A stretch of DNA of 64,000 bases from Candidatus Methanomethylophilaceae archaeon (GTDB lineage Archaea; Thermoplasmatota; Thermoplasmata; Methanomassiliicoccales; Methanomethylophilaceae): positions 1 to 64,000 of the forward strand of contig CALUHR010000003.1 in NCBI GenBank assembly GCA_944320495.1, in the 5' to 3' direction. Both the position numbers and the translations under genes were made by a program. Numbering within the stretch: position 1 is the first letter of the stretch; each line of letters begins with the position of its first letter. This document shows positions 19,064-62,480 of the stretch, piece by piece. The notes beneath the pieces were generated by a model. That model saw only the letters and a list, made by a program, of their open reading frames with translations. It had not been told where the DNA came from and made no database searches.

Positions 19064-21151
19064 ATGGATGCGCTCATCAAGGCAACGGCCCTGGTACTGG
19101 TCGTCGCCGCCGTGCTCGCCCCGTTCGCGTTGGACGATTCTGACGCCGAGGCGGAGATGGACGGCGTGATGCTGTACCAGGTCAACCCATTCGACTGCGA
19201 AGGCGTGTCGATCCACAACTACGGGGAATCGACCGTCGACATCAGCGACTACACGATCAGGGACATGCCCCCTGGCAGCAATAACGAGGGAGTGCTGTCG
19301 TTCGCGCAGGGCATGAGGCTGGCACCCGGCGAGACGCTCGTCATCGTCTCGGAGATATCCGGGGACGAGCCGTTCTCCCAGCAGGACAACGTCGTCGTCA
19401 TCGGCGATGGGAAGGTCGAGTCCTCCGGCAGGTTCACCCTGGCCAACGGAGGGGACGACGTCTATCTGATGGACGGGGACCGCGTCGTGGACGCGATGTT
19501 CTACGGCAACGTCGATGTGGACCCGACATACTGGGACGGCCCCGCCGTGACCGAGAAGGACCGCTGGTTCTACCGCGCCGGCACCGTGGACCACGACGAC
19601 AGGTCCGACTGGTACCAGTACACCAGGGGCAGCATCAACGAACCCTTCGACCCCACCAAGAAGTACGATGCCGAGGTAACCCCCTTCCTCTTCCCCGAGA
19701 GCGGCGGGATACCGATCTACGAGGCGCTGGAATCGGCGACCGAGAGCATCTGCATCGAGATGTACCAGCTCGGAAGCAAGAACGTGATCGCGCTGCTCTG
19801 CGAGAAGGCCGCCGACGGCGTGGAGGTCCGCGTCCTCCTGGAGGGGGAATCCCTCGACGGTGGATACGACCCGATCGTCTCCGCCGGCCCCCAGTGGCTC
19901 CAGCTCCTGGAGAACGGCGGGGAGGTCAGACTCATCGGCGTCGGGGAGGACTACAACAGATTCCAGTTCGACCATGCCAAGTTCGCCGTCATCGACGGGG
20001 ACACCACAATAGTCACCTCCGAGAACTGGACCACCGATAACATGAACGGCAGCATCGACGACGACCCGTACGATTCCGGCACCCTCGGGAACCGCGGATG
20101 GGGCGCCATCGTGGAGAGCGCAGGCTACTCCGGGTACATGGCGGACGTCTTCGAGAACGACTGGTCCACAGACTACGGCGATGTCAAGTCCCTCCTGGAG
20201 GTCTACGATAACCTCAACGAGGGCGAGGTCTACTACATAGCCCCGAGTGACTCCGGCGAGTTCCCCTCATACGACGCCAAGGTTACGCCCGTCCTCTCCT
20301 GCGACAACTCCTACAACGCCCTGATGTACTATGCCGGCACGGCCGAGGAGAGATTGTACACCCAGCAGCAGAGCTACTCCGAGTTCGGCACCTACGACGA
20401 GGGATCCCCTCTGATGATCTTCGACGAGGCGTCCCAGCGCGGGGTCGACACCAGAGTGATCTTCAGCAAAAACCTCGAGGATCAGGTCGACCAGATGAAC
20501 GCGAGGACCAACGTCCAGGTCGCCATGATGGACGACCCCTACGTCCACAACAAGGGCGTGATCTGCGACGACGTCGTCTGGGTGTCCTCGATTAACTGGA
20601 CCGAGACCTCCATGTTCCAGAACAGGGAGTGCTGCGTCGCCATCGAGTCCGCGGAGGTCGCCGACTTCTTCGCTGAGGTATTCCTCCAGGATTTCGACCG
20701 CTACTACACCTATGGCGGGTTCACCGCCTACTTCGAGGACATCGAGGACTCCTACCCCTCCGGCGAGGAGGTCGTGTTCACGGTGACCGTCAACCCCGCG
20801 GCAGGCGACTATGAATACGTCTGGGACTTCGGGGACGGCTCCGCGACGAAGACCACGGACATCAACAGGACGGCGGCCAGACCGGCCGACGGTACGCACA
20901 CGCTGTCCGTGCGCATAACCGACATGTCCTCCGGCATCACCAAGACGATAACCGCCGAGTACACCGTGGGAGAGGTCCAGGAGACCCCGTCCGACGATCC
21001 CGCGGGCGATGGGGGATCGACCATCTCCGATCTGCTGGACGGCAACCTGCAGTACATCATCGTCATCCTCGTGGTGCTCCTGTTCGCTGTAGCCGCGGCG
21101 GCGAAGTCCCGCGGAGGGAAGTCGAAGAAGAAGGGCAAGAGGAGGAACCGA
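19064..21151 (+). CDS. Secreted, membrane-anchored phospholipase D-family protein (lamin-tail + 2 HKD + PKD); proposed CGA stop
   Basis: Signal peptide, HAKFAVID and HNKGVICD, YEYVWDFGDG, TM plus KSKKKGKRRN tail, then CGA (21149-51) overlapping the next ATG. Standard code runs on to 21433. Confidence 0.8.
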
Positions 21152-21606
21152 TGGGTTTCTTCATGGTCCGCAGGGCCGGAGGGGCCGATGTGCCGTCGAT
21201 GTACGGCATCTACACGGAAAACCTCGACGACTACGTGTCGGCCGACGCGATCGAGTTCTTCATGCTCCAGTGGCCTCGGGGGCAGCTCGTCGCGGAGGCC
21301 GTCACCGGCGGGACCGCCGGGGCGCTCAGCTCCTTCGTCATGGAGGACGGGGCCGTCTCGGTGGCCCTGCTGGCCGTCGGGGGACCCTTCCGCGGCATGG
21401 GGGCCGGTTCGGCCCTCATGGACCGCATTATAGCGGAATCGATCGCCGTGGGCGCACCGCGCGTACAGCTCGAGGTCCGCGTCACGAACGATCCCGCCAT
21501 CTCGTTCTACGAGAGACGCGGATTCGTCAGGACCGAGACCGTCCGCGGCATCTACGGCGACGGTGGTGACGGCTACAGGATGGTCCTGGACCTCGGTCAC
21601 GCCTGA
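21151..21606 (+). CDS. GNAT acetyltransferase (RimI-like)
   Basis: LAV...FRGMGAGSALM, LEVRVTN..AI.FYERRGF. Confidence 0.85.
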   Translation: MGFFMVRRAGGADVPSMYGIYTENLDDYVSADAIEFFMLQWPRGQLVAEAVTGGTAGALSSFVMEDGAVSVALLAVGGPFRGMGAGSALMDRIIAESIAVGAPRVQLEVRVTNDPAISFYERRGFVRTETVRGIYGDGGDGYRMVLDLGHA

Positions 21607-23479
21607 GCAGGAAGTACACCGCCACCGAGGCGACGATCACGATCGCCGCGGCTATGATCACGTTCAGGACCAGAGGGTCCAACGACAGCCAGGACCCGTC
21701 ATCGCCCTCCGGGACGGAGTCCACATGGTAGACGCCGTTGGCGGTGGCCATGAACGTCACCATCCCCGATGCGGCGTCCTCCTCGTCGGTAACGATCTCC
21801 ATCCTGTTCCCGTCGGAGTCCGTCACGACGGCCACATCTCCGGAAGCGACCCTGTAAGGCACGGACACCTCGACCGTTAGTGCATCCTCCGATGATTCGA
21901 AGCCCGCGAGGTACAGGTCCCACGATCCGCCGGAACCCTTCTCGAGGGATACGACGAACTCGGTACCGCCCACGTACATGGACTCCAGACCCGTTATCAG
22001 GACCCATGAGTCGGTGGAGCCGAAGCGGACCATGGCAGAGTTGAAGTACATATCACCGGACTGGGAGCGCAGGACCACGGCGTCATCGGTCACCGTCATG
22101 ACGTCTATCTTCCCGTCGGTGAGCCTTGGAAAGATGCAGGTGGCCACGATACCATCTCCGATGGTGTCGCCGTTGACCTGCCCGCCTTCGCGCCTCTCGA
22201 TGACCCCGTTGTTCTCGAAGGTCCCCGAGACGTCCACATCACCGCTGAGAATGAGGAACCAACCGTTGACCATCGTCCCGGCGGGTTCGACGGAGAGGGT
22301 CGAGCCGGAGGTCACCCAGAGGTCCGTGTCGATGTAGAGGACCGTTCCCGAGGGCACCGTGAGATCGGAGTATGATGCCCAGACCCCATCCTCCCCGTAG
22401 ACGGCGATCCTGTTCGACGACACGCCCACCGTGTCCCTCAGCTCGGCGCGCTTGACCGATCCCCCGATCTTGTAGTCGGAGAGGTCATAGACCTCGGTGT
22501 CCGAGGCTATGAAGCAGGGGTTGACCCTTATCGTGACGTCGTGCGCGTCCAGGATGACGTTTCTCGGCTGTGCCAATGCGGGAGACTCCCCGTTGCAGAG
22601 AACAGTCGGAGCGTCGAGGATCCCACCGCCGACGATGGCCGTCCCCACGTCCATCTCGGCGCCGATGCTGACGGTGACGTCCCTCTGGACGTAGAACGTC
22701 CAGAGGTCCCCGAGATAGCGGGCATCGCTGTCCTGGACGTCCGAACCGATACACAGATAGCGGACCGAACCGGCCTTGAGGTCGTAGCTCAGATACGTGA
22801 CGACGCAGCGCTGGTTGGACATGTATCCCACGTCTCCGCCGGCGATGGTCACCGACAGGTCGATGCAGCGCCCATCCTCCCCCGACGGGTACAGACGATC
22901 GATGCTCGCGCCCTTCTTCACGGAGATGTCTATGGAACCGATCTCCACCATGCAGTCGGAGGCTATCACGACGTCCACATCGCCCGCTATGGACATCGTC
23001 AGCGATGATACGGGCGAATACGCGGTGAAGTGGGAATCCGGCAACGCGGTCTCGACACGCAGCACCGCCGAGACCCCGGTTATGCTGGTCGCGCTCCCGG
23101 AAACCATGGTGAACTCCACGTCCACCGGCGCCTCCGGGTCGCTGATGGTGTCCAGCGAGAGGACGGTCAGGTTGCGGACGGAGGCACCGTCGAAGACTAT
23201 CGACACCGACCCGTCCACATCCGTCCAGTCGACCAGGGTCAGGTCGGAGTCCTGCCTGTACCTCTGGACCGTGTGCGTCTGGCCGTCCGGACCGGGTTCC
23301 GAAAGACGCTTGGTGACGAGGACGGAACCGTCGTCCTCCGTGACTATGATGTCCGCGTCCGGATACAGCTCCTGGGGCAGCGCTCCGTCGTCCCCGTCGC
23401 CGGCCGCCGCCGATGAGACGGTGACCATGAGGAGCAATAGAACCGCGACGGCTGTGACCGCGACCGGGAGCCTGTTCAT
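21593..23479 (-). CDS. Secreted/membrane-anchored surface protein; proposed CGA stop
   Basis: Signal peptide, acidic beta-rich body, C-terminal TM ending YFLLRRD then CGA. Standard code extends it to 21527. Confidence 0.7.
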
Positions 23480-23555
23480 GGCGGGTCAAGGAACGCACCG
23501 ATTGAAAATGGATTCGCCGGGACGCACGGCCCCGGCGTAATGTGGATCTCCACGT

Positions 23556-25070: not shown

Positions 25071-25072
25071 GG

Positions 25073-26635: not shown

Positions 26636-26921
26636 CCTCCTGGGGGTGTTATGTCAGAGAAAACACGGTGCCCCTGCTCCGTCCCTACGCCGTCGGCCCA
26701 AGGCCTCGCACGGCGAGTACCAAACCATTGCGACGATCCATTTGCTGGGTCGGAGCCCCGTTGCCCATCGTCCGCCGGTGTTCGCCCCATCCCCGGGGCG
26801 AGTGATGATAGTGAGTGTGAACAGGGTTGCCAGGTGCAATCCCTAGATGCCGTATTGTTGCATCCTTTATAAACCCGTTATATGGAAATGATGTGGAATG
26901 AGGGGCGAAACCCCTCGTTTG

Positions 26922-30262: not shown

Positions 30263-30410
30263 GCCTCCAACCAGGCCTTCGCCGTATATGAACGGATGCA
30301 GGGGGGTGCGCCGAAAACCCCAGATTCGTGTTGATGGACCTCTCATCCAAAGATGGATGCGCTTGGACGACCCATCCATTATATCTTCACAGCGGAATCC
30401 GCTGGCCATC

Positions 30411-32237
30411 ATGGACTGCATCAAGAAGAAGGTGAACGAGGAGCTCCAGAGGGGCTGGATCGGCAGCGACCTCGCCTGCAACTACCATCCGTGCCACTTC
30501 ACGGGACAGGACTGCACGTTCTGCTACTGTCCGTTCTATCCCTGCCACGACACCGACCTCGGCGAGATGCTCGTCGGCAGGCGCGGCAACGAGGTATGGT
30601 CATGCTCCGACTGCCTCTTCATCCACCGCACCGAGGTGTGCCAGTTCATCATTTCCGAGGTGGGGCGCCTCGGCGTCACGGAGGCTGGCGACCCCCGCTT
30701 CATGGACATATTCGCCGAAGCCAAGAAACGCTTCTGGCACGAGGGCAGCGCCCTCATGGTCGTGGGAGCCACATCGGACGCAGGCAAGTCCATCACCGTC
30801 GCCGCGCTCTGCCGCATCCTCCACAGGAGGGGCTACATCGTCGCCCCCTTCAAGAGCCAGAACATGAGCCTCAACGCCAAGGCCACCAGGATGGGCACGG
30901 AGATCGCCATGGCGCAGACCGTCCAGGCCAAGGCAGCCGGCCTCAAGACGCCCGACAGCCACATGAACCCCATACTCCTCAAGCCGAAGGGTGACACGGT
31001 GTCCCAGGTTGTCGTGTGCGGGAAGCCGTATGCGGACTACGACGTGGAATCGTACTACGGTGAGTTCGTCCCCGGACCCGGCAGGTCGATCGTCCGCGAG
31101 AACATCGCCTTCCTGAAAAGGCACTACGACTTCGTCCTCATGGAGGGTGCCGGATCCCCGGCGGAGATCAACATCTACGACGTGGACATCGCCAACATGG
31201 GCGCCGCCAGGGAGGCCGATGCCGACGTGATACTCGTGGTGAACGTCGAATGGGGCGGCGCGTTCGCCTACGCGCTGGGAACCATCGAGCTCATCCCGGA
31301 GGAGGACAGGAGGAGGATCAAGGGCGTCGTGTTCAACAACGTCCGCGGAGACACGGAGAGGTTCAGGACCGGGATACCCGAGTTCGAACGCCTCTGCGGG
31401 GTCCCGGTCATCGGCGTCATCCCCCACGGGGACTTCGTGCTCCCCTCGGAGGACTCCGAGGCGCTCAGGAGCGTCGCCACCATGGGCCACGGCAGATGCA
31501 GGATCGCGGCAGTGCGCTACCCGAGGATCGCCAACTTCACCGACCTGGACCCGCTTTTCCTGGAGGATGTGACCGTCGTCTTCGCCGAGAGGCCCGAGGA
31601 CCTGGACGGCGCCGACGCGATCGTCCTGCCCGGCACGAAGAACACCGTCCAGGACCTCCTGTGGATGGAGAGCGCCGGCATCGCCGACAAGGTGCGCTCC
31701 CTCAGGGGCAAGGTGCCGATCGTGGGAATATGCGGCGGGTACCAGATGATGGGGCGCGAGCTCCGGGACCCGGAGGGGATCGAGGGCGGGGTCAGCCGCA
31801 CCCTGCCCGGACTGGGGCTGTTCGACATGACAACCACATTCGGCGACTACTCCAAGCGCGTCGTGAACAGCGAGGGGCGCATGCTCGTCGGCGATGGCGG
31901 CGACATCACTGGCTATGAGCTGCACATGGGCATGTCCGAGGTCCGCGAGGAGCCGCTCTTCGAGATAACCAACAACTTCGACAGGGACAGGGTCACCGAC
32001 GGAGCCGTGAGGGAGAATGAGATGCTCTACGGCACATACCTCCACGGGATATTCGACAGGAAGCCCTTCAGGACCCATTTCCTCTCCAGGATAACGCATG
32101 GAGGGGAGCGCTACGACGCCTCCGACTCCCGCGACTACGACGATATCCTCGAGGAGAACCTCGAGAGGCTGGCGGACGTGTTCGAATCCAACCTGGACAT
32201 GGACGCGGTCATGCGCATGCTGGGGGTGGGCGAGTGA
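30411..32237 (+). CDS. cobQ: Cobyric acid synthase with N-terminal Cys-rich domain
   Basis: CNYHPCH..QDCTFCYCPFYPC domain, then GATSDAGKS, PFKSQNMSLN, EGAGSPAEIN, GICGGYQM, GTYLHG. Confidence 0.9.
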   Translation: MDCIKKKVNEELQRGWIGSDLACNYHPCHFTGQDCTFCYCPFYPCHDTDLGEMLVGRRGNEVWSCSDCLFIHRTEVCQFIISEVGRLGVTEAGDPRFMDIFAEAKKRFWHEGSALMVVGATSDAGKSITVAALCRILHRRGYIVAPFKSQNMSLNAKATRMGTEIAMAQTVQAKAAGLKTPDSHMNPILLKPKGDTVSQVVVCGKPYADYDVESYYGEFVPGPGRSIVRENIAFLKRHYDFVLMEGAGSPAEINIYDVDIANMGAAREADADVILVVNVEWGGAFAYALGTIELIPEEDRRRIKGVVFNNVRGDTERFRTGIPEFERLCGVPVIGVIPHGDFVLPSEDSEALRSVATMGHGRCRIAAVRYPRIANFTDLDPLFLEDVTVVFAERPEDLDGADAIVLPGTKNTVQDLLWMESAGIADKVRSLRGKVPIVGICGGYQMMGRELRDPEGIEGGVSRTLPGLGLFDMTTTFGDYSKRVVNSEGRMLVGDGGDITGYELHMGMSEVREEPLFEITNNFDRDRVTDGAVRENEMLYGTYLHGIFDRKPFRTHFLSRITHGGERYDASDSRDYDDILEENLERLADVFESNLDMDAVMRMLGVGE

Positions 32238-33076
32238 GGATCCTCGTCCTCGGCACGTCCTCCGACGCAGGGAAGACCGTCATCGGCGCCATGATCTGCC
32301 GCCACATGGCCCGCAGGGGGCTAGACCCCGTGCCCTTCAAGGCGTTCAACCTGTCGCTCAACTCCTATGCCACCAAGGACGGCGGGGAGATCGGGATGGG
32401 GCAGACATTCCAGGCGTGGGCCTGCGGCCTCGAGCCTGAGACCGACATGAACCCCGTGCTCTACAAGCCGTCCGGCGGGGGCAGGATGCAGATGATCGTC
32501 GGGGGGAGACCGCTCATGGACATCGGCAACGGCGTCGAGCCCGACAGGGAGGCGGCGGTGAGAGGGATTCGCGAGGCATACGGCAGGCTCTCGTCCGCCC
32601 ACGGATGCGTGGTGTGCGAGGGGTCCGGATCCCCCGCCGAGCTGAACCTCATGTCCAGCGACCTCGCCAACACCGGGCTCATGCGCCTCCTGGGAGTGCC
32701 CGCGGTGCTGGTCGCCGATATCGAGCGCGGAGGGGCCTTCGCAGCGATATACGGGACGTGGAGGATCATCCCGGAGGACGTCAGACCCCTGCTCAAGGGC
32801 TTCGTGATCAACCGCTTCAGGGGCGACGCCTCCATCCTCGGGGACGGCATCAGGAGGATCGAGGAGCTCACCGGCATGAGGTGCCTGGGCGTCATACCCT
32901 ATCTGCCGCTTAGGTTCCCGGAGGAGGACTCGCTGTCGCGGTCCGAGGGGAGGCTCCAGGGCGAGGACGTCAGGCAGGCGTTCCTGTCCAACCTGGACGA
33001 GCTGCTCGACGCGGCGGAGGCCGGCGGATTCGACTTCAGGCTCCTGGAGGACATCACGGACGAGGGTCAGAGCCGA
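32234..33076 (+). CDS. CobQ paralog lacking the glutaminase domain; proposed CGA stop
   Basis: GTSSDAGKT, PFKAFNLSLN, EGSGSPAELN, ADIERGG; jumps from PEEDS to the terminal helix. CGA at 33074; standard stop at 33109. Confidence 0.8.
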
Positions 33077-34525: not shown

Positions 34526-34971
34526 TCGGCAACCCCAGCAACAAGGCGATCAGGAACGCCAAGAAGGCGCTGGAGTCCCTGGACCTCAACTACGAGGACC
34601 GCGACGGCACCATCGTGCTGAGCGCCATGGGGGACGACCTGCCCATCGGCATGGTCATCATCGCCGACGACGGCAACATGACCCTGAACATCTACTGCTA
34701 CCTGATGTTCGACTTCGGGTCGGAGGCCAGGATGAAGCTCATCCCCGAGCTGAACACGCTGAACAACACCATAAACAACGGCGGGTTCTACATGTCGGAC
34801 GACGAGAACAAGATCTACTTCAAGATCGTCCAGAGCTTCTACGACCAGGTCCCCTCGGACGAGACCATCGCCCACCTGATCAAGGTGGCGTTCAAGACCG
34901 TCGACGTCAACGACGGCAAGCTGAAGGACCTCATCCCGAAGGACGCGATGAAGGACCTGATGTACTCGTGA
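34522..34971 (+). CDS. YbjN-like (sensory transduction regulator) domain protein
   Basis: 149 aa with a LN..N......GGFY pattern; ATGA overlap with gltA. Confidence 0.6.
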   Translation: MIGNPSNKAIRNAKKALESLDLNYEDRDGTIVLSAMGDDLPIGMVIIADDGNMTLNIYCYLMFDFGSEARMKLIPELNTLNNTINNGGFYMSDDENKIYFKIVQSFYDQVPSDETIAHLIKVAFKTVDVNDGKLKDLIPKDAMKDLMYS

Positions 34972-35874
34972 TCGCCTTCCGGCGACCATCCTCTCCACCG
35001 GCCTGCGGGCACCGGCGACGACCTCGTCCGGGAGCTCGACGGCCGGTCCCATCTTCTCCAGGCACTCCAGCACGCCCTCGGGGGTTGCCATCTTCATGGC
35101 CCCGCACACGGCGGACTCGGGGAACCACCACACCCTTCCGGGGACCTCCTTATCGAGCCTGTGCCTCATGCCGACCTCGGTGAGCACGATGAACTCCCTC
35201 GACTCGGACTGGCGGCAGTGGCCGATCATGCCCTCGGTGGAACCGATGAAGTCGGCCATCGCGAGGACCGGCGCCCTGCACTCGGGGTGGGCGAGGACCT
35301 CCGCGCCGGGATGCTCGCGCCTGAGCGCCTCCACCTGGCCGACCGATATGGATTGGTGGATGGGGCAGAACCCGTGCCAGAGCTCGATGTCCTTGGATGG
35401 GTTCTTGGATGCGGCGTAGGAGCCGAGGTTCCTGTCGGGAACGAAGAGGACCTTGTCGGAGGACAGTCCCGAGACGACCTTGACGGCGTTGGACGACGTG
35501 CAGCACACGTCCATCTCCGCCTTGCACGCGGCCGTCGAGTTGACATAGCCGACGACCTCGCACCCGGGGTTGCGAGCACGAGCCTCGCGGATCTGCTCCG
35601 GGGTGCACATCTGCGCCATGGAGCACACCGCATCCGGATCGGGGATCAGCACGGTCTTGCCCGGATTGAGGATCTTGGCGGTCTCGGCCATGAAGGACAC
35701 GCCGCAGAACACGATGACATCGGCGTCCGTCTCGGACGCCGCTATGGAGAGGCCGAGGGAATCCCCGACCTTGTCGGCGATGTCCTGCACCTCTGGCAGG
35801 CAGTAGTTGTGCGCCAGGATGATGGCGTTGCGTTCGCACTTGAGCTCGGCTATCCTCTCCGAGACGTCGACCAT
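34972..35874 (-). CDS. nadA: Quinolinate synthase; proposed CGA stop
   Basis: ILAHNY, GDSLGLS, VFCGVSFMAET, CSMA, YVNSTA, CTSSNA, CPIH, HPEC, C..MK. CGA after ERMVAGR gives 300 aa; standard code gives a junk extension to 34465. Confidence 0.92.
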
Positions 35875-35963
35875 GCCTGCGCGATTGACGCACCCATATA
35901 AATCATGCCCCAATCTATTTAGGAAAACCTAATCGAATGGTATATGCCCCCGATTACACGACC

Positions 35964-36283: not shown

Positions 36284-36673
36284 GGAGAAGGACAGCCATT
36301 CGCTTACAATGGACTCAATCCTGAATCCATCCCCAAAATAGAGAAGGGTCTCAACGAACTGTGCAATAGGATACCCCGCGCTACATCCCACAGCTCTCAT
36401 ATCACGTCTACAAAGGAGCCGATCAACAATCCGAAAGGAAAGTACAGGGACCCGAAGGAGACGAAGGAAGCAATCCTGGAATCGCTCAGGATCAACGGCG
36501 GCCAAAGCGGACGGGAATTGGCGACATCTGTAGGCTACAATGGCGTGAACAACACCTTCCGCAGATGCTTAGCCGAACTCATGGAGGCCGGCCTGGTCGA
36601 ATACTTGTATCCGGACTCACCCAGGGACAGGCGCCAGAAGATATGTCTGGCAAAACGCGGACTAACGCCCCGA
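36284..36673 (+). pseudogene. Fragment of a winged-HTH (Fic/RecG C-terminal-like) protein
   Basis: AILESL...SGRELA..VG...TFRRCL.ELMEAGLVEY..PDSPRD..QK. No usable start upstream; CGA at 36671. Confidence 0.5.
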
Positions 36674-40759: not shown

Positions 40760-41962
40760 TCGGAGCCTGGCAGTGGAGGACGTCCCCCTGCCCTCCCCTC
40801 CGCACGCCAGGATAACGAGGCACGAGCAGACCGCGGCCATCAGGAGGAACGCGGCGCCCAGGTACCCGATGTACGGAAGGCCGAAGGAGTCGAAGACGAT
40901 TCCCGCGAGATAGGAACCGGCGGCTATCCCCACGTTGAACGACGTTGGGTTGAGCGAGGATACGAGATTGATCGCCTCCGGATAGTCCCTGGTCCCGATC
41001 TCCAGCAGATGCACCTGCACGGAGGCGTTCATGACGTACATCATGAGCCCGATGAGCAGTATGTCGGCCATCCCGGTGACCGCGCCCGCCAGAGCCGTCG
41101 GCAGCAGGAACAGTGCCAATCCCTCCAGCAGGCATCCCCAGCGGACGGTGCGGAACCCCCCGTGGGAGGCTATCCTCCCGGACATCAGGTTGCTGGCCAG
41201 GACGGCCACCCCGTAGGCCATCAGACCGAGGGACACCATGCCCTCTGAGAAGCCGAGCTCGTCCTCGAATATCGGCGTGATGTAGGTGTACACGGCGTAG
41301 ACACCGCCAGCGCTGAAGACCGTCACCAGACATGCGAGCAGGACCCTCGGATCCCTCAGCATCCTCCGTGCCGCGCCCTTACGCCTCGGCCCCGCATGCC
41401 CTCCCGAACGCGGGAGCGTCCTCGCAGCGAAGGCCAGTGCGACGAGCGACATTACCAGTATCAGGACGAACACCGATCTCCACCCGAGGACTCCGGACAT
41501 GTAGGTCCCCAACGGGACGCCCACTATCGACGAGAGGCTGAACCCGGCGAAGACCCACGACACGGCCGCGGAGCGGTGCCTCTGCGTGACCAGGTCCATC
41601 ACGAAGGTCAGACCCACTGCCAGGAGCGACCCCGATGCGGCGGCGGTGACCACGCGGGACACCAGCAGCGGGACGTACCCCCACGACACAAGCGACAGCA
41701 GGTTGGCCAGGATGAACACGACCGCCAGGGACATGGCGAGCCTGTACCTCCCGAACCTCCCCGTGACACCCGTTATAAGAGGCGTGAACACGGCATAGCT
41801 CAAGGCGAAGACGGACACCAGCGAACCGACCGCGGTGTACTCGACACCGAGCCCCGACGCGATGTCAGGCAGGATGCCCATGACGATGAACTCGCTGGTC
41901 CCCATGACGAAGCTCAGGAAGACGAGCGCGACAACCGCCGGAGTGAACAGCCTGTCATCCAC
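40760..41962 (-). CDS. MFS transporter; proposed CGA stop
   Basis: GTSEFIVMGILPDIA N-terminus from GTG 41962, about 12 TMs. First CGA follows STARL; standard stop at 40688. Confidence 0.85.
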
Positions 41963-42046
41963 GCCCGTTCGAGAGCCGAGGCCGTATTTAGCACTGATGA
42001 CACGCGAGGGTTTTATACGATGCTGGCAGTGGACGACCCGATCAAC

Positions 42047-45978: not shown

Positions 45979-46108
45979 CTTCCACCCGCGAATGCGATGC
46001 ATTGCTACGATTTATAATGTACATCTGTGACCACCGGGACAATGGGAATATCTCCACCAGCCGGTTTTATCTATTAAATATTGGATGTATAATCCAATAG
46101 GTGTGCTG

Positions 46109-46504
46109 ATGGCCCCAGACGATCCAAGGAAGAAGGTTTGCCTGCGCTGCGGTCACGGATGGATCAGCCATGTCGAGACCCCTGCCAGGTGCCCGTCCTG
46201 CGGTTCGTACCGCTGGAAAGACGAACCGCGGGAGAACCTCTGTCCGGTCTGCGGCCACATGTGGCGCTCGCGCTCCGAGGGCTCCGGAAAGAGATGCCCC
46301 GCCTGCAGAGCGCGTCCGAGAGCATCATCAGATCATGATGGAGGGCACTGCGTGGAAGCGGTCGATAGCAAGAAGGAGGAGATAGTCGGCAGATACCTCA
46401 AGGGCGAGGGATGTGTCAAGATATCCATGGACACAGGACTGTCCGTCGACACCGTGATGAGAACTTTGAAAGGGGTTTCCGACGGCGGGCGCCTGAGGAT
46501 GCGA
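46109..46504 (+). CDS. Double zinc-ribbon plus HTH protein; proposed CGA stop
   Basis: CLRCGHGW...RCPSC and CPVCGHMW...RCPAC, C-terminal HTH-like helices. CGA at 46502; standard stop overlaps ribH. Confidence 0.7.
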
Positions 46505-46931: not shown

Positions 46932-46935
46932 CTCG

Positions 46936-48532
<1,597 letters not shown>

Positions 48533-48797: not shown

Positions 48798-50186
48798 TCA
48801 GTGCTTGATGTCGAGACCGGCGTCCCTGAGGGTGGCGACGGCCTTGTCGTAGATGTCCAGGTACTCCTGGGTCGGCTTGACGGTCTTGACGTCGTAGCAC
48901 TCCTGGAAGGTCTTGCCGGCCGGAGCGTCGGTGAAGTGGGCCTCGTAGGCGGGCACGATCTTGTTCAGGATCTCGTTGACGTCGGAGATCTTCATTCCGC
49001 AGGTGGCCACGGCGGCGTTGCCCATGATCCTGGCCTCCATTCCGGTGGTCTTGTCCTGGACGACTCCCTTGGCGGCGGCGGATCCGGAGAGGAGCTCCCT
49101 TCCGGAGGCGGTGTCGGTGATCGCCTGGGCGGCGGTCTCCAGCAGGCACATCTCGGTGCAGGGTCCTGCCATCGGGTAGTACTGGTTGGCCAGGAGCAGG
49201 TCGGTGTTGGCGTCGACGGCTGCGGCTGCCCAAGCGGCGACCTGGAGGGTCTCTCTCGCAGTGGTGACTCCCCACCTGATGTGGATGGGTCCGTCCAGGT
49301 GGAAGTTTCCGCTGAAGCAGGCGAAGGATCCGAGGGTGGTGGCGACGTCGCAGATGGCGGTCTCCTCGACGCCTCCGGTGTATCCACCGAAGATGGGCAT
49401 CTGCTCGATCATGATCATGTCGCCGACGGTGGTCCATCCGGCCAGCATGTTCAGTCCGGTCATGTCGATCTTCAGCTCGTTGAGCTGGGAGCACTCGTGC
49501 GCGTCGGTGATCCTGTGTCCCGCGTTGGGGAGATCGGCGCAGAGACGTCCGGCCTCGGACAGAGGCGTCTCGGGTCCCTAAACACCCATGCCGGGCCTGG
49601 CTGCCCTAACACGGGCCTCCTTGACGGCCCTGAGCTCGGCCATGGTCGCACGGATCTCGTAGGGGGTCTTGGTCTTAGCCGGGTGGCCCTCGATCGTGGT
49701 CATGACTCCGTTGACGAGGGTGTCGACGACTCCCTCCTGGGCGTAGGACTGCATGACCTGCACGAAGACGTCCTCGGAGATCGGGGATCCGGTGGGTCCT
49801 CCCTGGATGATCGGCTTGACGTTGCTGTTGCCGTGCCTGGGGTAGAACCTGGCGATGTCTTTTCCCTCTCCGTAGATCATCTTGGTCGGGGTCTTCTTGA
49901 TTCCCTCCCAGACCTCCTCCTCGGTGACGTGCATGACACGGCCGAGGTCCTGGTTGTAGTAACCGACGGTGACCAGCATCTCAAGTCCGGCCTGGAAGAG
50001 CCTGTTGACCATGTCCTTGTCCTCGGGGACGATCTCCTTCGGGTCGAACTTGATGTTGTACTTCTCTTTGAGAGCGGTGAGGTTCTCGGGGGTGATCTTG
50101 TAGTCCCAGTCCTCCACCTTGACTTTCTTTCCCTTCACGAACCTGTCGTAGACGTCGGGGATGGTGAGTGCCCTTGTTGCTGCCAT
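48798..50186 (-). CDS. mtmB: Monomethylamine methyltransferase MtmB (Pyl at codon 203)
   Basis: QGGPTGSPISE, then RPGMGV-TAG(49578-80)-GPETPLS, then HECSQLNELKID, NQYYPMAGPCTEMCL. Two ORF-track pieces join in frame, 462 aa. Confidence 0.97.
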
Positions 50187-50223
50187 TTCTTTTCCTCCTT
50201 AGTAGTTCCTATGGCGTTTTGCT

Positions 50224-51206: not shown

Positions 51207-51235
51207 GCGGCGGGGTTCCCCCCGCCAGTGGTTTC

Positions 51236-53483: not shown

Positions 53484-53592
53484 GCCGATCGGTCTCCTTT
53501 CCGATGACGTCCGTTCCGACGTTTTCAACGCCGCGGATCGGGATGACCGTGCCCCATAACCTGTTATAAGGACCGGTCCGATACCGCATCCG

Positions 53593-54876: not shown

Positions 54877-54890
54877 ACGGAGGGATGCGC

Positions 54891-55169
54891 ATGGGATTCA
54901 TGGACAAGATGAAGGATGCGGTCAAGGACGCCGACACCAAGATCGGCAACTCCATCGACAAGAGCAAGCTCGACTCCCAGATCAGGGACGAGGAGCGCAA
55001 CATCGAGAAGCTGGAGGCCGAGATCGGACAGGAGGTCGTCAAGACCCTGAAATCCGGCAAGACCGTGGCCGAGGCCAACATCCAGGCCAACTACGACAAG
55101 ATCCTCGAGTCCGAGAAGAAGATCGAGGAGCTCAAGGCCAAGAAGGAAGCCATCGGAAAGGAGGAGTGA
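54891..55169 (+). CDS. Small charged coiled-coil protein
   Basis: MGFMDKMKDAVK...; Lys/Glu-rich; followed by the hairpin CGGCGGGG-AGA-CCCCGCCG. Confidence 0.75.
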   Translation: MGFMDKMKDAVKDADTKIGNSIDKSKLDSQIRDEERNIEKLEAEIGQEVVKTLKSGKTVAEANIQANYDKILESEKKIEELKAKKEAIGKEE

Positions 55170-55342
55170 TCCCCTCGGCGGGGGAGACCCCGCCGCCCAA
55201 ACGACTTACCATCCCCGGATTACGTATGTGCGCCATCCGTTACAGTCCGGACGGCTTGTAACTACGCTTTCGTGCAACATTCTTTTTTTGTTAGATAGCT
55301 TAATAAGTCCACGGGTCGGTTCCCATTTAAAAGGGGGAGACC

Positions 55343-56080
55343 ATGGACACAGAGGAGATTCTCAGGAACCTATAGGATTCGGTCGTGAAGCTCGACGTGG
55401 ACGGCTGCCGCAGATACGCGGAGATCGCCATGGACTCCGGCATGCCTCCAGAGGAGGCCATTGAGAGGGGACTCGCACGTGGCATGGACCGCATCAGCGA
55501 CATGTTCGACGAGGGCACCGCCTATCTCCCCCAGATCCTGATGGCATCGAAGGCCATGGACGCCGCCCTGGACGTCATCATCCCGCATATCGAGAGGCAG
55601 GGGTCCTGTCTCCGCGGGATAGTCGTCATGGGATCCGTCAAGGGCGACATCCACTCCATCGGCAAGAACGTGTGCTGCGCCATGCTCCGCGGCGCCGGAT
55701 TCAAGGTCGTCGACCTCGGAACGGACGTGGATCCGGACAAGTTCGTCAAGGCCGTCGAGAAGCATCATCCGAACGTGGTCGGCGCCTCGGCACTCATGAC
55801 CGTCAGCCTCCCCCAGCAGAGGCAGCTGGTGCGCATCTTCAGGGAGAACGGCATATCCGTTCTCACCATCTTCGGCGGCGCCCCCTGTAGCCAGGAGTGG
55901 GTCGATGAGATCGGAGGGGACGGGTACTCCGACTCAGGCGCGAGCATCGTCAGGCTCGTGCGCTCGCTCCTTGGCATCGACGTCCAGGTCGGATCCGGCC
56001 AAAAGGATTATATCGGAATTGACCGGGATGGGGAGCCAGATGACGGCCAAACGCTATGTCGACATTTTCGAGGCATATGA
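55343..56080 (+). CDS. mtmC: Second methylamine corrinoid protein, with in-frame TAG at codon 11
   Basis: GGGGGAG RBS, ATG 55343, MDTEEILRNL-TAG-DSVVKLD aligns with MtmC1 MSKEEILADL-K-KSVETWD; GDIHSIGKN motif. Ends at 56062 if CGA is a stop. Confidence 0.85.
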
Positions 56081-57419
56081 CCGGTTCTTCAAGGGGGAGC
56101 GCGTCACCGAGAACGACTGGGACTACAACATAGTCCCGAAGGCGGCGGCCGACATCAAGGAGAAGTTCAAGATCTCGTTCGGAAGGGACATCATCCCCAC
56201 CGATGAGGACCTGTGCGAGAGACTGTTCCTCGCAGGCATCGACATGCTCCTCACCACCGGGTTCTACAACACCGATCTGAAGAGGGTCATGAGGATCGAC
56301 GAGGACGAGCTCTTCGAGGGACTCAAGATGGCGCCGACGAAGCTGCAGCTCGGCTCCGGCAAGGACCAGCGCGAGTGCCAGGCCCGCCGCGGCAACGCCC
56401 GTCGCAAGCCCATCATCCAGGGTGGCCCTACCGGGGCGCCCGTGTCGGAGGCGAGCTTCGTCCCCATGATCCGCTCTTACGCCCAGGAGCCCGTCGTAGA
56501 CACGATAGTCAGCGGGGTCCTGAGCACCATCAACAACCATCCGGCGACCACCAACACGCCCTGGGAGATCCGCGCCACGATGGCCGAGACCAGGTACGTG
56601 AGGGAGGCATGCCTGATGGCCCAGCGCCCAGGCATGTGCATCTAGGGGCCCCAGACCCCCCTCTCCGCCGCGGGGAGGCTGGCGTCGGACCTCACGCAGC
56701 ACGGCCTCAAGCCCTACGACGCCCACGAGTGCTCCCAGCTGAACGAGCTGAAGATCGACATGTCCGCCCTGAACATGATGGCGGGCTGGCAGGCCGTGGG
56801 GGACATCGTCATGATGGAGCAGATGCCCATCTTCGGAGGCTACGTCGGAGGCGTGGAGGAGACCGCGATCTGCGACGTGGCGACAATGATCGCATCGTTC
56901 GCGATATTCGACTGCGACATCCACCTGGACGGCCCGATCCACATCAGATGGGGGACCACGACCACCCGCGAGACGCTGAAGATCGCCGCGCACGCCGCGG
57001 CCGCTCTGGACCAGAACACCGATTTCCTGCTGGCCAACCAGTACTACACGATGGCCGGGCCCTGCACGGACATGTGCCTGCTGGAGATCGCCGCCCAGGC
57101 GATGACCGACACCGCCTCCGGCAGGGAGCTCCTCTCCGGCGTGGCGTCGTCCAAGGGAGTCAGCCGCGACAGGACCACGGGCATGGAGGCCAGGTTCATG
57201 GGGGAGGTCTCGCTCGCGACCTGCGGGATGAGCATAGAGGACGTCAACAGCACGATCGACAACGTCCTGAAGCTCTACGAGAAGGACTTCGCGAAGGCGC
57301 CCCAGGGAAAGACGTTCCAGGAGTGCTACGACGTCACCACGATGGAGCCCAGCGACGAGTATGTGGAGCTCTACGACAGGATGGTGGACGTCCTCGGTAC
57401 CTGCGGGATGGACTTCCGA
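56040..57419 (+). CDS. mtmB: Second MtmB (Pyl at codon 202); proposed CGA stop
   Basis: RPGMCI-TAG(56643-45)-GPQTPLS. Collinear with mtmB1 to GMDF, then CGA 57417-19, giving 459 aa; standard code runs to 57908. Confidence 0.93.
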
Positions 57420-57758
57420 TCGCTCCTTGTTCTCCTCGGACACCAGGTTGAGGCCGGCCACCCCGGCGACGATCATGAAGAGGCAGATCCAGCCGACCCA
57501 GTTCAGACCCTCGTCCATCCAGATCATGCCCACCACGACGGCCCCCACGGCGCCGATGGCCGTCCATACCGCGTAGCACGGGCCTGTCGGGAGACCGTGC
57601 CTGAATCCGAGGTTGAGCAGGTACATGCTGATGCCCAGGAAGATCATCATGGGGATCATCCAGAGAGGCTCGGAGAACCCGTCTGTGAACTTCAGGCATG
57701 TCGCCCATGCGGTCTCCGCGACGCCTCCTGCGAGGACGTAGAGCCATCCCCTGTTCAC
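57420..57758 (-). CDS. SMR family transporter (SugE/Gdx-like); proposed CGA stop
   Basis: GTG start overlapping the upstream TGA; W..L.GG.AE.AWA..LK..DGF, YAVWTAIG, four TMs; CGA gives 112 aa. Confidence 0.85.
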
Positions 57759-58087
57759 AGCACCATCCCCCTGGAGAGCTCGAGGCCTACGACACCAGCG
57801 AGGATCAGCCCCACCAGGACCATCTTGACCGCCCCGACTGCCTCCCTGTACAGGAAGTACCCGACGGCCATGGTGCACACGGCACCGATGCCGGTCCACA
57901 TGGCGTAGGAGACGCCCATGGGTATCGTCTCCATACCCACGCCCATAAGGACGGGACTGAGGACGGCGAAGAACACGGTCGCCGCGAGCCATGCGATCCT
58001 GCGGTCCTCGTCGAACCTCTTGAGCGTTATGACCCAGACGGGCTCCAGCAGCCCGGCGGCGATTATCCACAGCATCCCTGCGTCCAT
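57755..58087 (-). CDS. SMR family transporter (SugE/Gdx-like)
   Basis: AGLLEPVW..TLK, SYAMWTGIG, YRE, GVVGL. Confidence 0.9.
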   Translation of the reverse strand: MDAGMLWIIAAGLLEPVWVITLKRFDEDRRIAWLAATVFFAVLSPVLMGVGMETIPMGVSYAMWTGIGAVCTMAVGYFLYREAVGAVKMVLVGLILAGVVGLELSRGMVL

Positions 58088-58151
58088 GGGGCGGGCAATG
58101 TCGCACGCTTAATAACGGTTGCCGGGAGGCTGAACGGCACTGAACAGAGTG

Positions 58152-58165
58152 TAAGGATAACCGAA
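58152..58165. promoter_or_regulatory. Possible DtxR/IdeR-type operator
   Basis: TAAGGATAACCGAA partly matches the TTAGGTTAGCCTAA core and lies upstream of dtxR-feoB. Confidence 0.3.
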
Positions 58166-58197
58166 TTATTTTTAGGTAGAGCGATTATCCCAGTCCG

Positions 58198-58863
58198 ATG
58201 ACCACAGGGAACCGCGAGGACTATCTCATCAACATTCTCAGACTCACAGAGGGCGAGGGCGTGGCCAAGACCACCGAGCTCGCCTCCTTCATGGGCGTTT
58301 CGCCCGCCAGCGTGAGCGAGATGGTCAAGGTCCTCGCGAAGGAGGGTCTCGTCTCCTACGAGAAGTACAAGGGCGTCGCCCTCACCGACAAGGGTCTGAC
58401 CTACGCTCGCCAGATCCGCAAGAAGCACCATGTGGTCGAGCGCTTCCTCACCGACTACCTCAACGTGGACCACAAGACCGCCCACGAGGAGGCCTGCCGC
58501 ATCGAGCACGCCATCTCCGACGAGTCGGCGATCAGGATGTGCCACATGATGGGCACCCCGGTGGACGTGGACTGCCAGAGCTGCATCTCGCCCTGCAAGG
58601 CGGTCTCCGAGGGGATCATGAACATCCTCCCCCTGAACAAGCTCGCCCAGAGCCAGTCCGGGAGGATATCCCACATCAAGTCCGACGATGCGGAGGTCGT
58701 GAAGAAGCTCATCTCCATGGGGTTCGTCCCCGGCAGGGAGATCTCCATCGAGGCCATCCTCTCGGACGGCGGACCCCGCGTGGCGCGCATCGGAGACGCC
58801 ACCATGGCGCTGGACTACAGGCTCGCGTCCTGCATCTTCGTGGACGTCGAGTCCGAGAGCTGA
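58198..58863 (+). CDS. DtxR/MntR-family metal-dependent repressor with C-terminal FeoA domain
   Basis: EDYL..I, VSPASVSEMV, LT..G, RKHH..ERFL, AC.IEH; C-terminal L..MGF.PG. Confidence 0.93.
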   Translation: MTTGNREDYLINILRLTEGEGVAKTTELASFMGVSPASVSEMVKVLAKEGLVSYEKYKGVALTDKGLTYARQIRKKHHVVERFLTDYLNVDHKTAHEEACRIEHAISDESAIRMCHMMGTPVDVDCQSCISPCKAVSEGIMNILPLNKLAQSQSGRISHIKSDDAEVVKKLISMGFVPGREISIEAILSDGGPRVARIGDATMALDYRLASCIFVDVESES

Positions 58864-58897
58864 GTAATTATAGGGAGCGCCCATCGGGGTCCCCAGC

Positions 58898-60850
58898 ATG
58901 TCTCAACCTTCAGGAGGACCCGTCGCCGAGGGCGGCGGACGCGTCCTCAGGGTGGCCCTCGTGGGCCAGCCCAACGTGGGCAAATCCTCGCTCTTCACCC
59001 GCCTGACCGGCGTGGGCGTGATATCCTCGAACTACCCCGGCACCACGGTGACGTTCGAGGAGGGCGCCATCACCAGGAACGGCTCCACAGTCAGCGTCCG
59101 CGACCTGCCCGGCACCTTCGGCATATCCGGGAACTCGGACGACGAGAGGGTCGTCATCAGGAACCTGAGGGAGCAGGGGTTCGACTGCATCATACTGGTG
59201 GCCGATGCCACCGGCCTGTCCGGGAGCCTTGTGCTGTGCGAGGAAGCCCTCGAGCTGGGGCTCCCGACCATCGTGGCGCTCAACAAGATGGACGAGGCCC
59301 GCAAGAGGCTGTCCATCGACAGCTCGAAGCTGGAGGAGGCCCTCGGCGTGCCGGTAATTCCGGTGTCCTCGAAGACCTCCGAGGGCGTCGACGAGCTCGC
59401 TGACGCGGTATGCGCCGGGAAGGCGAGGCTCCCCAAGTCCGACATGCGCTTCGACGACGGGATCGAGGCGGCCATCGCAGGGATAACTGAAGCCCTGCCG
59501 GACGGCATGCCATTCTCCAAGCGGGGCGTGGCCATCAAGATCCTCGAGCACTCGCCCGAGTTCGACCCCCTGGCCGACGACGACACCCGCCGTTCAGCCG
59601 GCCTCATGCGCCGCGTGTACTCGGAGCGCGAGGGCAGGTCCATGGCGGTGTCCATCGCCACCGAGAGGTACTCGTGGGCGGAGAAGGTCGTGTCGTCCTG
59701 TGTCGAGAAGGACGAGAGCAGGCTGTCCCTTGCCGACAGGATATCGGACATCACAATCACGCCGATCACCGGCCTGCCGATCCTCGTGCTGATATGCCTC
59801 GGCATACTCACGGTGATCGTCTACGCCGGCTCGTTCCTCGACGGGGTGGTGAACGGTGTCTACAGCTCCGTCATCGGGAGCGCTCTCATCGACTTCGGCC
59901 GCTCCATCGGAGGGGACTTCGGCGAGGCCGTGTTCACCGGGATCGACGGGAGCTTCCAGGCGATGCTGGCGCTCGTCATCCCCTACATCCTCGTCTTCTA
60001 CATCATCCTGGGCATCCTGGAGGATTCCGGATACCTGACCAGAGCGGTCGTGCTCCTGGACAACATAATGCACCACTTCGGTCTCCACGGAGGCTCTTTC
60101 ATCCCCATGATCGTCGGCATCGGGTGCAACGTGCCGGCCATCCTGGCGGTGCGCACGGTCAAGTCCCGCAGGGAGAAGATCATCCTCTCCTCTATAATCA
60201 TCATGGCCGTCCCCTGCTCGGCGCAGCTGGCCATAATCATGGGCGCCACAGGGTCCTACGCCGGGGTGCTCTATGCGTTCGGCATCCTCGTGATGCTCGT
60301 CTGCCTCGGCATGGCGGTCGGCGTCCTCATGAACAGGTTCCTGAGATACGAGCCAAGCGACCTCGCCATGGAGCTGCCCCCGCTGCAGATGCCCACGGTC
60401 AAGAACATCCTGTTCAAGACCTGGCACAGGATCAAGGACTTCCTCTACATCGCGTTCCCCCTGCTCGTGGTGGGCTCCATCGTGGTGGAGATCCTCATCT
60501 CATACGATCTGCTCGGGGCCATCGTCGATCCGCTCTCGCCCATCACCGTCGGCATCCTGGGACTTCCGGCCGTCTGCACCATAGCGTTCATCGTCGGCAT
60601 CCTGAGGAAGGAGATGGCCGTAGGGATGCTCTCGGTACTGGCAGGAGGGGTCGCCCTGGAGGAGTTCATGACGCCGGACCAGTTCGTGGTGTTCGGAGTG
60701 GTGATGGCGGTGTACATGCCGTGCCTCGCCACCCTCCTGACGATGTGGCGCGAGATCGGGTGGAAGGAGACCATCTGCGTGAGCGTCCTGTCCATAGCGG
60801 TGGCCATCGCCCTCGGAGGGGCGGCCAACCTGCTGCTCCAGCTGTTCCGA
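58898..60850 (+). CDS. feoB: Ferrous iron transporter B; proposed CGA stop
   Basis: GQPNVGKS, NYPGTTV, DLPG, NKMD, G.GCNVPA, MELPP, Y.PC.ATL. Last TM ends LLQLF followed by CGA CGA (650 aa). Confidence 0.93.
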
Positions 60851-60902
60851 CGACGCCTCCGGAGGAACCAAGCATATTATCGGATGATGCCATCCAGCGC
60901 TC

Positions 60903-62165
60903 ATGACAGTCAAAGAATCGGTGACATCCGACGCCCTCGTGGTGGATGCGCCAACGTGCAGGGACGACTGCTCCGCCACCAGGGTCCTGCTGCAGGACCA
61001 GGCCAGGACCGTCGTCTTCCAGGACCTCGACGGCGGCAGGGCCGTGGGCAACAGGTTCTCCACCAGGGAGAAGATGGCCGCGGCGCTGAACATCCCCAAG
61101 GACGGCATCGTCAACCACATCCTCGAGGCGGTCAACCACCCGATCCCCTGCGAGGTCGTCGACGACCCGGAGTTCGCCGCATGCGAGCTGCCCCTGGACC
61201 TCACCGCCCTGCCCATCCCCAAGTACTTCCCGGAGGACGGCGGCAGGTACGTGACCTCGGGAATCGTGGTCACCGAGTTCGAGGGCTACAGGAACGTCTC
61301 CTTCCACAGGATGATGATCATGGACGAGAGGCACATCGCCATCAGGCTGGTGCCCCGCCACCTGTTCACCATCCACCGCATGGCGAAGGAGAAGGGACAG
61401 GAGCTCGGGATCACCATCTGCATCGGCGCACAGGCCGAGGTGCTGCTCGCCGCCGCGACGTCGATGGACTTCGGCGCCGACGAGCTCGAGGTCGCCTCCG
61501 CGATGCACAAGGCCGGACACGGCACCCCGCTCAGGGTCGGACGCTGCGCCAACGGCCTCCTCGTGCCCGCCGACACCGACTACGTGATCGAGGGGAGGAT
61601 AACACTCGAGGAGACCAAAGAGGGTCCGTTCGTGGACATCACCGGCACCTACGACTTCGAGAGGCAGCAGCCGGTCATCGAGGTCGACAGGATCACCTCG
61701 TGCAAGGATCCGATGATGCACCTCCTCCTGCCCGGAGGATGGGAGCACTACCTCCTCATGGGACTCCCCAGGGAGCCCATGATCCTCAAGGCCGTGAGGC
61801 AGGCCGTGCCCGGCGTGAGGAACGTCAGGCTCACCGAGGGCGGATGCTGCTGGCTTAACGGAGTGGTCTCGATCAGGAGGAACAAGGCGGGCGACGGGGT
61901 CAACGCCGGCATGGCCGCCCTGTCAGGTCACACATCCATGAAGCAGGTCATCGTCGTGGACGAGGACATCGACATCTTCGACGACCGCGAGGTCGAATGG
62001 GCGGTCGCCACCAGGATGCAGGCGGACCGCATCGTGAAGATCCCCGGAGCCGCCGGATCCTCGCTGGACCCCAGCTCCCACGGGGGGACGACCTGGAAGG
62101 TCATAATCGACGCGACGATCCCGCCCGAGGCGGACCTGTCGCTTTACAAGAAGGCAACGCTCTGA
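60903..62165 (+). CDS. UbiD family (prFMN-dependent) decarboxylase
   Basis: DLTALPIP....EDGG.Y, NVSFHRM, EGPFVD.TG.YD, VVDEDID, IDAT.P. Confidence 0.9.
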   Translation: MTVKESVTSDALVVDAPTCRDDCSATRVLLQDQARTVVFQDLDGGRAVGNRFSTREKMAAALNIPKDGIVNHILEAVNHPIPCEVVDDPEFAACELPLDLTALPIPKYFPEDGGRYVTSGIVVTEFEGYRNVSFHRMMIMDERHIAIRLVPRHLFTIHRMAKEKGQELGITICIGAQAEVLLAAATSMDFGADELEVASAMHKAGHGTPLRVGRCANGLLVPADTDYVIEGRITLEETKEGPFVDITGTYDFERQQPVIEVDRITSCKDPMMHLLLPGGWEHYLLMGLPREPMILKAVRQAVPGVRNVRLTEGGCCWLNGVVSIRRNKAGDGVNAGMAALSGHTSMKQVIVVDEDIDIFDDREVEWAVATRMQADRIVKIPGAAGSSLDPSSHGGTTWKVIIDATIPPEADLSLYKKATL

Positions 62166-62210
62166 GCGCCTTCCGGGGGCCGTCTTCGGACGGCTCCCTC
62201 AAACCCAGAT

Positions 62211-62480
62211 TCGGTCCTCGGCCTCTGTCGAGTCAGCGGAGGGCATCGCGACATTCTGCATCAGGAGCTGGCCCTTGTCGGTCAGCACGAGGACGTCGTC
62301 GGCGTACTCCATGTAGCCTATCGTGATTATCGTGTGGACGCTCTTGGATGCGCGGTAGTCGCCCTCGACCCTGTCGCGCGACCATCCCGCGTACCTGCGG
62401 ACATCCTTCTGGAGGGACGACACGTACCTCGGACGATCCATCCGCGGTTCGGCGTTCCTCCTGCGTAGAGTGAATCTCAT
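62211..62480 (-). CDS. Hypothetical protein
   Basis: ORF from ATG 62480; CGA at 62211-13 or TGA at 62199. Confidence 0.5.

Follow-up and report, generated by a model that had tools for sequence, protein, structure and literature searches.

The evidence assembled here is best read as indicating that the arginine codon CGA serves as a fourth, context-sensitive terminator of translation in a gut methanogen of a 'Ca. Methanoprimaticola'-type genus (Methanomassiliicoccales, family Methanomethylophilaceae) and, to graded extents, in its genus. The stretch of DNA under study, hereafter the window, comprises positions 1-64000 of one contig (C3) of this organism's genome (labeled G000; 1.77 Mb in 14 contigs, 61% GC). 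A sequence-only reading of the window had claimed eleven CGA codons as gene ends, and all eleven (11/11) proved to be in-frame CGAs on the strand that had been named. Given the comparisons presented below, we consider it highly probable that these CGAs terminate translation, whichever mechanism is at work. As to the mechanism itself, we lean, if only slightly, toward competition between the release factor aRF1 and a weakened tRNA-Arg(UCG). Termination of this kind is probably leaky, with a residual arginine meaning persisting alongside it.

Genes were called with a codon-usage model that was seeded on AGG/CGC-rich open reading frames (ORFs), scored CGA as neutral and selected non-overlapping frames. 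Relatives were retrieved via the aRF1 protein and belong to the same order and family; those of the same genus include Candidatus Methanoprimaticola sp. MG2 (G013), UBA480 (G045) and the metagenome bin CASFYI01 (G018), the last being a separate assembly with 93-96% (~94%) DNA identity to G000. The shares of CGA ends given for relatives are based on 43-200 kb sampled per genome.

Gene ends at CGA across the genome and the genus

In real genes of G000, AGG and CGC are the preferred arginine codons, and CGA, CGG and CGT are all rare, so that the rarity of CGA alone is no proof. The decisive control was the coding potential after the first in-frame occurrence of a codon, compared between CGA and other rare codons. 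Past the first in-frame CGA, the next 60 codons looked non-coding in 91% of 260 testable genes, versus only 10-25% when the same test was applied to CGG, CGT, AGA, TCA, CTA and TGT. The gene caller placed 393 of 1608 gene ends (24%) at CGA, with 1128 at TGA, 60 at TAA and 27 at TAG, and these 393 ends stand against a handful of credible internal CGAs in the ~510,000 codons of the called genes. In-frame internal CGA occurs at ~0.27 per 1000 codons, which is mostly noise: most of the occurrences flagged by the caller were rejected as sense codons, being in-frame junctions of neighboring genes or 5' leaders, and once both are removed very few credible cases are left. The claim that CGA sits where genes should end was borne out at orthologous stop positions in ~24% of G000 genes, and the CGA ends match the stops of relatives (TGA or TAA) at a rate equal to that of TGA ends.

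The use of CGA ends is graded. They account for 29% of gene ends in G018, 24% in G000, 22% in G045, 12.5% in G050, 11% in G004, 10% in G013, 4% in G043 and 2% in G008. In an outgroup family with CGA as an ordinary codon the figure is 1.4%, and other genera of the family, at ~90 genes each, show 1-7%, a range that does not stand out clearly from background. In G000, the next standard stop lies at a near-random distance from the CGA, within 10 codons in 33% of cases versus 25% under a null derived from TGA ends; in the lighter users the distance is short, the corresponding figures being 55% versus 28% (Fisher p = 4e-6). Such back-up stops in the lighter users suggest leaky termination, and the genomes taken together suggest an evolutionary series in which TGA-to-CGA changes were tolerated first near a back-up stop and later anywhere.

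If CGA were simply arginine, stops would have been lost by T-to-C changes under GC pressure and the proteins would have been extended to the next standard stop. The back-up stops of the lighter users do look like tolerated read-through of this sort, tRNA-Arg(UCG) is present and conserved, and CGA is read as arginine in L18e and aRF1 (see below). The tails created by such a reading in G000 are, however, hard to reconcile with it. As the sequence-only reading had maintained, they are junk running into neighboring genes: they have a median of 24 codons and reach more than 300, are random-like in length and non-coding in codon usage, and cross neighboring genes, while of the 83 long open stretches that follow CGA ends, not one resembles coding sequence. 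Nor does the asymmetry between ends and internal occurrences resemble that of an ordinary rare arginine codon, and G018 shares most of the CGA ends of G000 (8 CGA and 2 TGA at the aligned positions). At the TGA ends of G000, G018 has 27 TGA and 2 CGA, and the swap thus goes both ways. On balance, we regard a plain arginine meaning as improbable.

The frame dependence of the effect bears on two further alternatives. In G000, CGA makes up 0.40 of the CGA+TGA triplets in frame +1 and 0.92 in frame +2; the corresponding values are 0.41 and 0.89 in G013, and 0.38 and 0.90 in G043. Out-of-frame ratios as in relatives exclude a motif-linked miscall and frame-blind editing, and they imply that there is neither a general T-to-C conversion nor selection against out-of-frame CGA. 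A motif-linked miscall or DNA modification was rejected on these grounds and because independent assemblies agree, in line with the earlier argument against a methylation-linked miscall. CGA-end behavior is also found in assemblies of unrelated projects, namely G018, UBA480 (with ...RYRPN-CGA as the end of the aRF1 gene itself) and Ca. Methanoprimaticola sp. MG2 (with ...GIF-CGA as the end of feoB). It is extremely improbable that an artifact of base calling, assembly or database alteration made CGA from TGA, since the effect is frame-specific, recurs in a number of public assemblies that different projects produced independently, varies site by site and in both directions between two ~94% identical genomes, and co-occurs with lineage-specific changes in tRNA and aRF1.

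The second alternative, likewise raised by the sequence-only reading, is that C-to-U editing of the mRNA turns CGA into UGA, so that the standard code would operate on the edited message. CGA and UGA are one C/U transition apart, CGA and TGA interchange between the sister species, and the shared bias for U at position +4 could be read by an editing enzyme. In its frame-blind form, however, editing is excluded, because out-of-frame CGA (xCG/A and xxC/GA) reaches the frequency seen in relatives that rarely end genes at CGA; the process would have to recognize the reading frame or ~390 individual sites. The sites moreover share no common motif beyond the weak +4 U, the in-frame CGAs of aRF1 and L18e would have to escape, and we are aware of no C-to-U editing of mRNA in archaea. 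This leaves editing with a very small share of our confidence. A -1 shift onto UAG has been suggested to act at human mitochondrial AGA/AGG; a frameshift onto a stop was rejected for the CGA ends, because no stop lies in either shifted frame.

The CGA ends differ from TGA ends in their context. Position -1 is mostly C or G and position +4 mostly U, the latter being found at 55-61% of CGA ends versus ~30% of TGA ends. The +4 preference is due in part to overlaps with start codons and to abutting convergent terminators: TG follows the codon at 88 CGA ends, in 51 of which a coding frame begins at the A (CGAUG), the CGA counterpart of UGAUG coupling junctions, and CGA occurs in 26 of the 28 exactly abutting convergent terminator pairs genome-wide, 12 of them being CGATCG with one CGA on each strand. 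By gene class, the CGA share of gene ends in G000 is 6% in the top codon-adaptation quintile and 37% in the bottom one.

CGA ends and TAG codons in the window

In the long open frames of the window, no in-frame CGA occurs before the end that had been stated, and many occur after it; our gene caller recovered the CGA end for 10 of the 11 genes. The case of feoB (58898..60850, plus strand, with a Pfam match) illustrates this pattern. Its CGA (60848-60850) is preceded by no other CGA in codons 1-650, and 26 are found in the next 336 codons, by which the standard-code frame would be extended through the next gene; the orthologues in five same-genus genomes have ...F-TGA at the aligned codon. In nadA (quinolinate synthase; 34972..35913, minus strand), the CGA (34972-34974) is codon 314, and the NadA Pfam profile is covered from 1 to 294 of 295, to residue 310. 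G018 also has CGA there and G013 has TGA two codons later, and the CGA abuts the TGA (34969-34971) of a convergent plus-strand gene.

The mtmB2 gene (monomethylamine methyltransferase; 55905..57419, plus strand) ends at CGA 57417-57419, codon 505, with the MtmB profile covered in full (1-450 of 450, to residue 502) and TGA at the aligned position in G013. It abuts the gene of a small multidrug resistance (SMR) protein (57420..57758, minus strand; CGA 57420-57422; Multi_Drug_Res covered 2-93 of 93), so that the palindrome CGATCG at 57417-57422 represents two abutting convergent CGA terminators. As a separate observation, CGATCG is under-represented in the window (26 found versus 58 expected), which hints at the target of a restriction-modification system.

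The gene of a PLD-like/PKD surface protein (19064..21151, plus strand) has its first in-frame CGA at codon 696 (21149-21151), its PLDc_2 and PKD domains (Pfam) stopping at 635. The codon is CGA in G018 as well, and it is overlapped by the ATG of the next gene, starting at 21151, in the sequence CGATG. A surface/membrane protein gene (21593..23479, minus strand) ends at CGA 21593-21595, the aligned codon being CGA in G018 and TGA in G013, and a CbiA/CobQ-like ATPase gene with a Pfam match (32234..33076, plus strand) ends at CGA 33074-33076, where G018 has TGA. For an MFS transporter gene (40760..41989, minus strand; CGA 40760-40762; MFS_1 Pfam match), the alignment to G018 falls apart with non-triplet gaps directly past the CGA. 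Three ends that had been called only plausible remain so. They are those of a short helix-turn-helix (HTH)-like ORF (36518..36673, plus strand; CGA 36671-36673) and of a Zn-ribbon-like small protein (46085..46504, plus strand; CGA 46502-46504), both CGA in G018 and both without a Pfam match in the profile search, and that of a hypothetical ORF (62211..62522, minus strand), whose CGA (62211-62213) lies three codons before a TGA and is ambiguous.

The gene caller added two CGA ends in the window: that of a 355-codon gene (11889..11891, plus strand), outside the range of the sequence-only reading, and a possible one in the gene upstream of mtmB2 (56060..56062, plus strand), five codons before a standard stop. 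Independently of gene ends, the window contains a low-GC island at 8001-12000 (39.5% versus ~62% elsewhere), possibly foreign or mobile DNA.

The sequence-only reading had also assigned TAG to pyrrolysine (Pyl), and a mostly sense use of TAG was supported in G000: coding continues after 14 of 21 testable in-frame TAGs, non-methyltransferase genes among them, and the PylS C-terminal domain was found above cut-off. Two mtmB copies with a Pyl TAG are located in the window; the in-frame TAG of the first (49578..49580, minus strand) is kept in G018 and G013, and that of mtmB2 lies at 56643-56645. In G057, which belongs to another genus of the family, 15 of 91 called genes in C2:1-100000 'end' at TAG, likely because TAG is sense there and the caller cut the genes.

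Arginine decoding of CGA and a possible mechanism of termination

Several observations weigh against CGA as a terminator. First, the claim that genes contain no internal CGA failed, as in-frame CGA is conserved at Arg78 of aRF1 and at Arg30 of L18e; CGA is thus demonstrably not only a stop. In the aRF1 gene (G000 C2:85936-87165, minus strand), the conserved Arg at codon 78 is encoded by CGA in 30/30 and 37/39 genus genomes in two samplings, and the codon varies outside the genus; other aRF1 arginine sites switch freely among AGG, CGC and AGA. In the L18e gene (G000 C13:191557-191913, minus strand), CGA encodes the Arg of the motif W-R-D at codon 30. The same codon is used by 30/30 genomes of the genus and by 27/27 from 13 other genera of the family, and it recurs across five additional families of the class; three families depart from it, with AAG, AGG and AAA. 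Third positions near codon 30 vary freely. A role as a lineage-specific sensor was rejected for the L18e codon, because the same codon is used where CGA is an ordinary sense codon. Judged from this distribution, L18e codon 30 is an ancient conserved sense CGA, so G000 must still read CGA as arginine, and CGA would be a dual-meaning codon instead of a clean reassignment. A separate internal CGA was noticed in the complete genome of G008 (C1 ~187031-187159), where a [NiFe]-hydrogenase small-subunit-like sequence reads ...YYVP-CGA-CPP in place of the usual Gly found in G000 (PGCPP), through either a genuine G-to-R substitution or an error in the base.

Second, tRNA-Arg(UCG), which the sequence-only reading had supposed to be lost, is present in G000 (C13:413317-413390), looks foldable and is 100% identical in G018, and this conserved, seemingly functional tRNA is not what one would expect if CGA had become a stop. 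It is nevertheless unusual. In none of the 21 genus sequences do positions 31 and 39 pair (the bases are A·A, C·A or U·C), so that the anticodon stem is shortened to 4 bp, whereas two other genera have a U31-A39 pair; positions 32/38 are U32/C38 in G000 and G018 only and C32/A38 in 19 other genus members. Third, no homologue of this tRNA was found in G007, G008 and G015 by BLAST and by 5' and 3' patterns, an intron-split or diverged gene being possible. This subclade has the fewest CGA ends, yet it keeps the in-frame CGAs of aRF1 and L18e, and its apparent lack of the tRNA would be the opposite of a rule by which a weaker tRNA goes with more stops.

Fourth, the relaxed reading of the first codon position that had been proposed for aRF1 is not obvious in its sequence. 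The motifs NIKS and YxCxxxF, with which eRF1 recognizes the first base of a stop codon, are intact, and the GTS loop alone is altered, by G28S, which was placed on the GTS-loop Gly by alignment to solved aRF1/eRF1 chains. G28S is the sole change in a decoding element and is unique to G000 and G018. Fifth, CGA ends reach 22% in G045, whose GTS loop is normal and whose tRNA has C32/A38. Neither G28S nor U32/C38 can therefore be required, and both were rejected as necessary causes; they may still tune the trait without causing it.

In the model that we favor, tRNA-Arg(UCG) would be kept but weakened, by loss of the 31-39 pair genus-wide and by U32/C38 in this species, and the ribosome would wait at CGA until the single aRF1, which in this species carries G28S in its GTS decoding loop, outcompetes the weak tRNA and frees the peptide, release being favored by a U after the codon. 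GC pressure would make TGA drift to CGA, first beside a back-up stop and then anywhere. The tRNA would be retained because at least two essential genes, those of L18e (Arg30) and aRF1 (Arg78), need CGA as arginine.

Stalling followed by rescue would be a different route to the same gene ends. With the tRNA scarce or weak, CGA would be effectively unreadable at these ends, and aRF1 would not recognize it; aPelota/ABCE1 would split the ribosome and peptidyl-tRNA hydrolase would free the protein. The unchanged NIKS and YxCxxxF, the genus-wide weakening of the tRNA anticodon stem and the presence of Pelota (G000 has one aRF1 and one Pelota) are consistent with it, as is the scarcity of CGA ends in highly codon-adapted genes, which a slow and costly route predicts. 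However, such a route would be very costly for 24% of all genes, the conserved CGA within the aRF1 gene points to aRF1 more than to Pelota, and the +4 U preference resembles the tetranucleotide context effects that release factors show. We therefore hold this route to be unlikely. Acquisition from bacteria of a further release factor, or of a rescue factor of the ArfB/ICT1 type, was also considered and rejected, none being found in a PF00472 search.

The genus-specific CGA at codon 78 of aRF1 invites one further interpretation. CGA may have two true meanings, stop at hundreds of gene ends and arginine at a few kept sites, with aRF1 codon 78 acting as a feedback sensor: abundant aRF1 would stop its own synthesis at codon 78, and when aRF1 is scarce, tRNA-Arg(UCG) would read through. 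We offer this combination, which draws on an analogy with bacterial prfB, as a tentative possibility, the regulation being purely hypothetical. Arg186 of aRF1, just after GGQ, is equally conserved as the non-preferred CGT (30/30 genus genomes), so that a role of such codons in pausing is an alternative to feedback. If the dual meaning and the feedback were true, they would amount to the first sense-to-stop change outside organelles and the first archaeal release-factor autoregulation loop.

Implications and comparison with known systems

To our knowledge, all established stop codons of cellular genomes start with U, and the established code changes of prokaryotes are all stop-to-sense or sense-to-sense. 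We found no description of CGA termination in Methanomassiliicoccales in the literature. If true, the capture of a sense codon as a terminator in a free-living archaeon would extend the known routes of code evolution, and the genus, graded from ~2% to ~29% of gene ends, displays the intermediate stages, with a nearby back-up stop and then none. It would also raise the structural question of how aRF1, or another route, handles a C at stop-codon position 1. In practical terms, about one protein in four of these methanogens is joined by standard gene callers to a junk tail or to a neighboring gene, and the public annotations, pangenomes and metaproteomic databases of the genus thus contain systematic errors. 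Ca. Methanoprimaticola sp. MG2, with ~10% CGA ends, seems to be available in culture or enrichment, which makes the claim directly testable.

Several known systems share parts of the behavior proposed here. Two meanings for one codon are familiar from UAG (Pyl or stop) and UGA (selenocysteine or stop) elsewhere. Bacterial prfB, which encodes RF2 and contains an in-frame UGA, resembles the aRF1 gene in having a clade-conserved in-frame terminator codon in a release-factor gene; unlike prfB, aRF1 has no frameshift site at codon 78, and the residue is a conserved arginine, so that read-through by tRNA-Arg would give a normal protein. Genetic code 34, in which all TAGs are read as Pyl, was described in the same archaeal family, with Methanomethylophilus named (Kivenson et al., 10.1101/2024.09.30.615893), and CGA is unmentioned in that paper. 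The mostly sense use of TAG and the presence of PylS in G000 fit this stop-to-sense change, to which the CGA-to-stop change would be additional and opposite in direction.

In two hydrothermal-vent archaea in which CGG encodes Trp, CGA is absent from identifiable domains and a stop meaning was speculated upon, which, according to the author, could not be inferred (Melnykov, 10.64898/2026.04.02.715157). Those archaea belong to another lineage with ~50% GC, CGG is reassigned and tRNA(UCG) was not found; here, there is direct evidence from gene ends, CGG is arginine-like and the tRNA is present. The ambiguous stop/sense codes of Blastocrithidia and Condylostoma, in which an altered eRF1 is combined with a tRNA whose anticodon stem is short (PMC13092985), resemble the present case in that a codon has two meanings, the anticodon stem of a tRNA has 4 bp and the decoding domain of e/aRF1 is changed. 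The direction differs, however: in those codes sense arose from stop codons, with the short stem promoting near-cognate reading of UGA, whereas here a stop would have arisen from sense, and the proposed effect of the lost 31-39 pair is poorer decoding by the cognate tRNA.

Further parallels are the sense-to-stop changes of organelles (NCBI tables 2, 22 and 23), namely AGA/AGG in vertebrate mitochondria, UCA in Scenedesmus and UUA in Thraustochytrium mitochondria. As in our case, the codon is very rare inside genes and is located at gene ends in place of standard stops. These organelles, however, have tiny genomes with a dozen or so proteins and lack the cognate tRNA, whereas the organism described here is a free-living archaeon with ~1600 genes and ~390 CGA ends that retains it. 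Sense-to-stop changes being so far known only in organelles, CGA would be the first case in a free-living organism.

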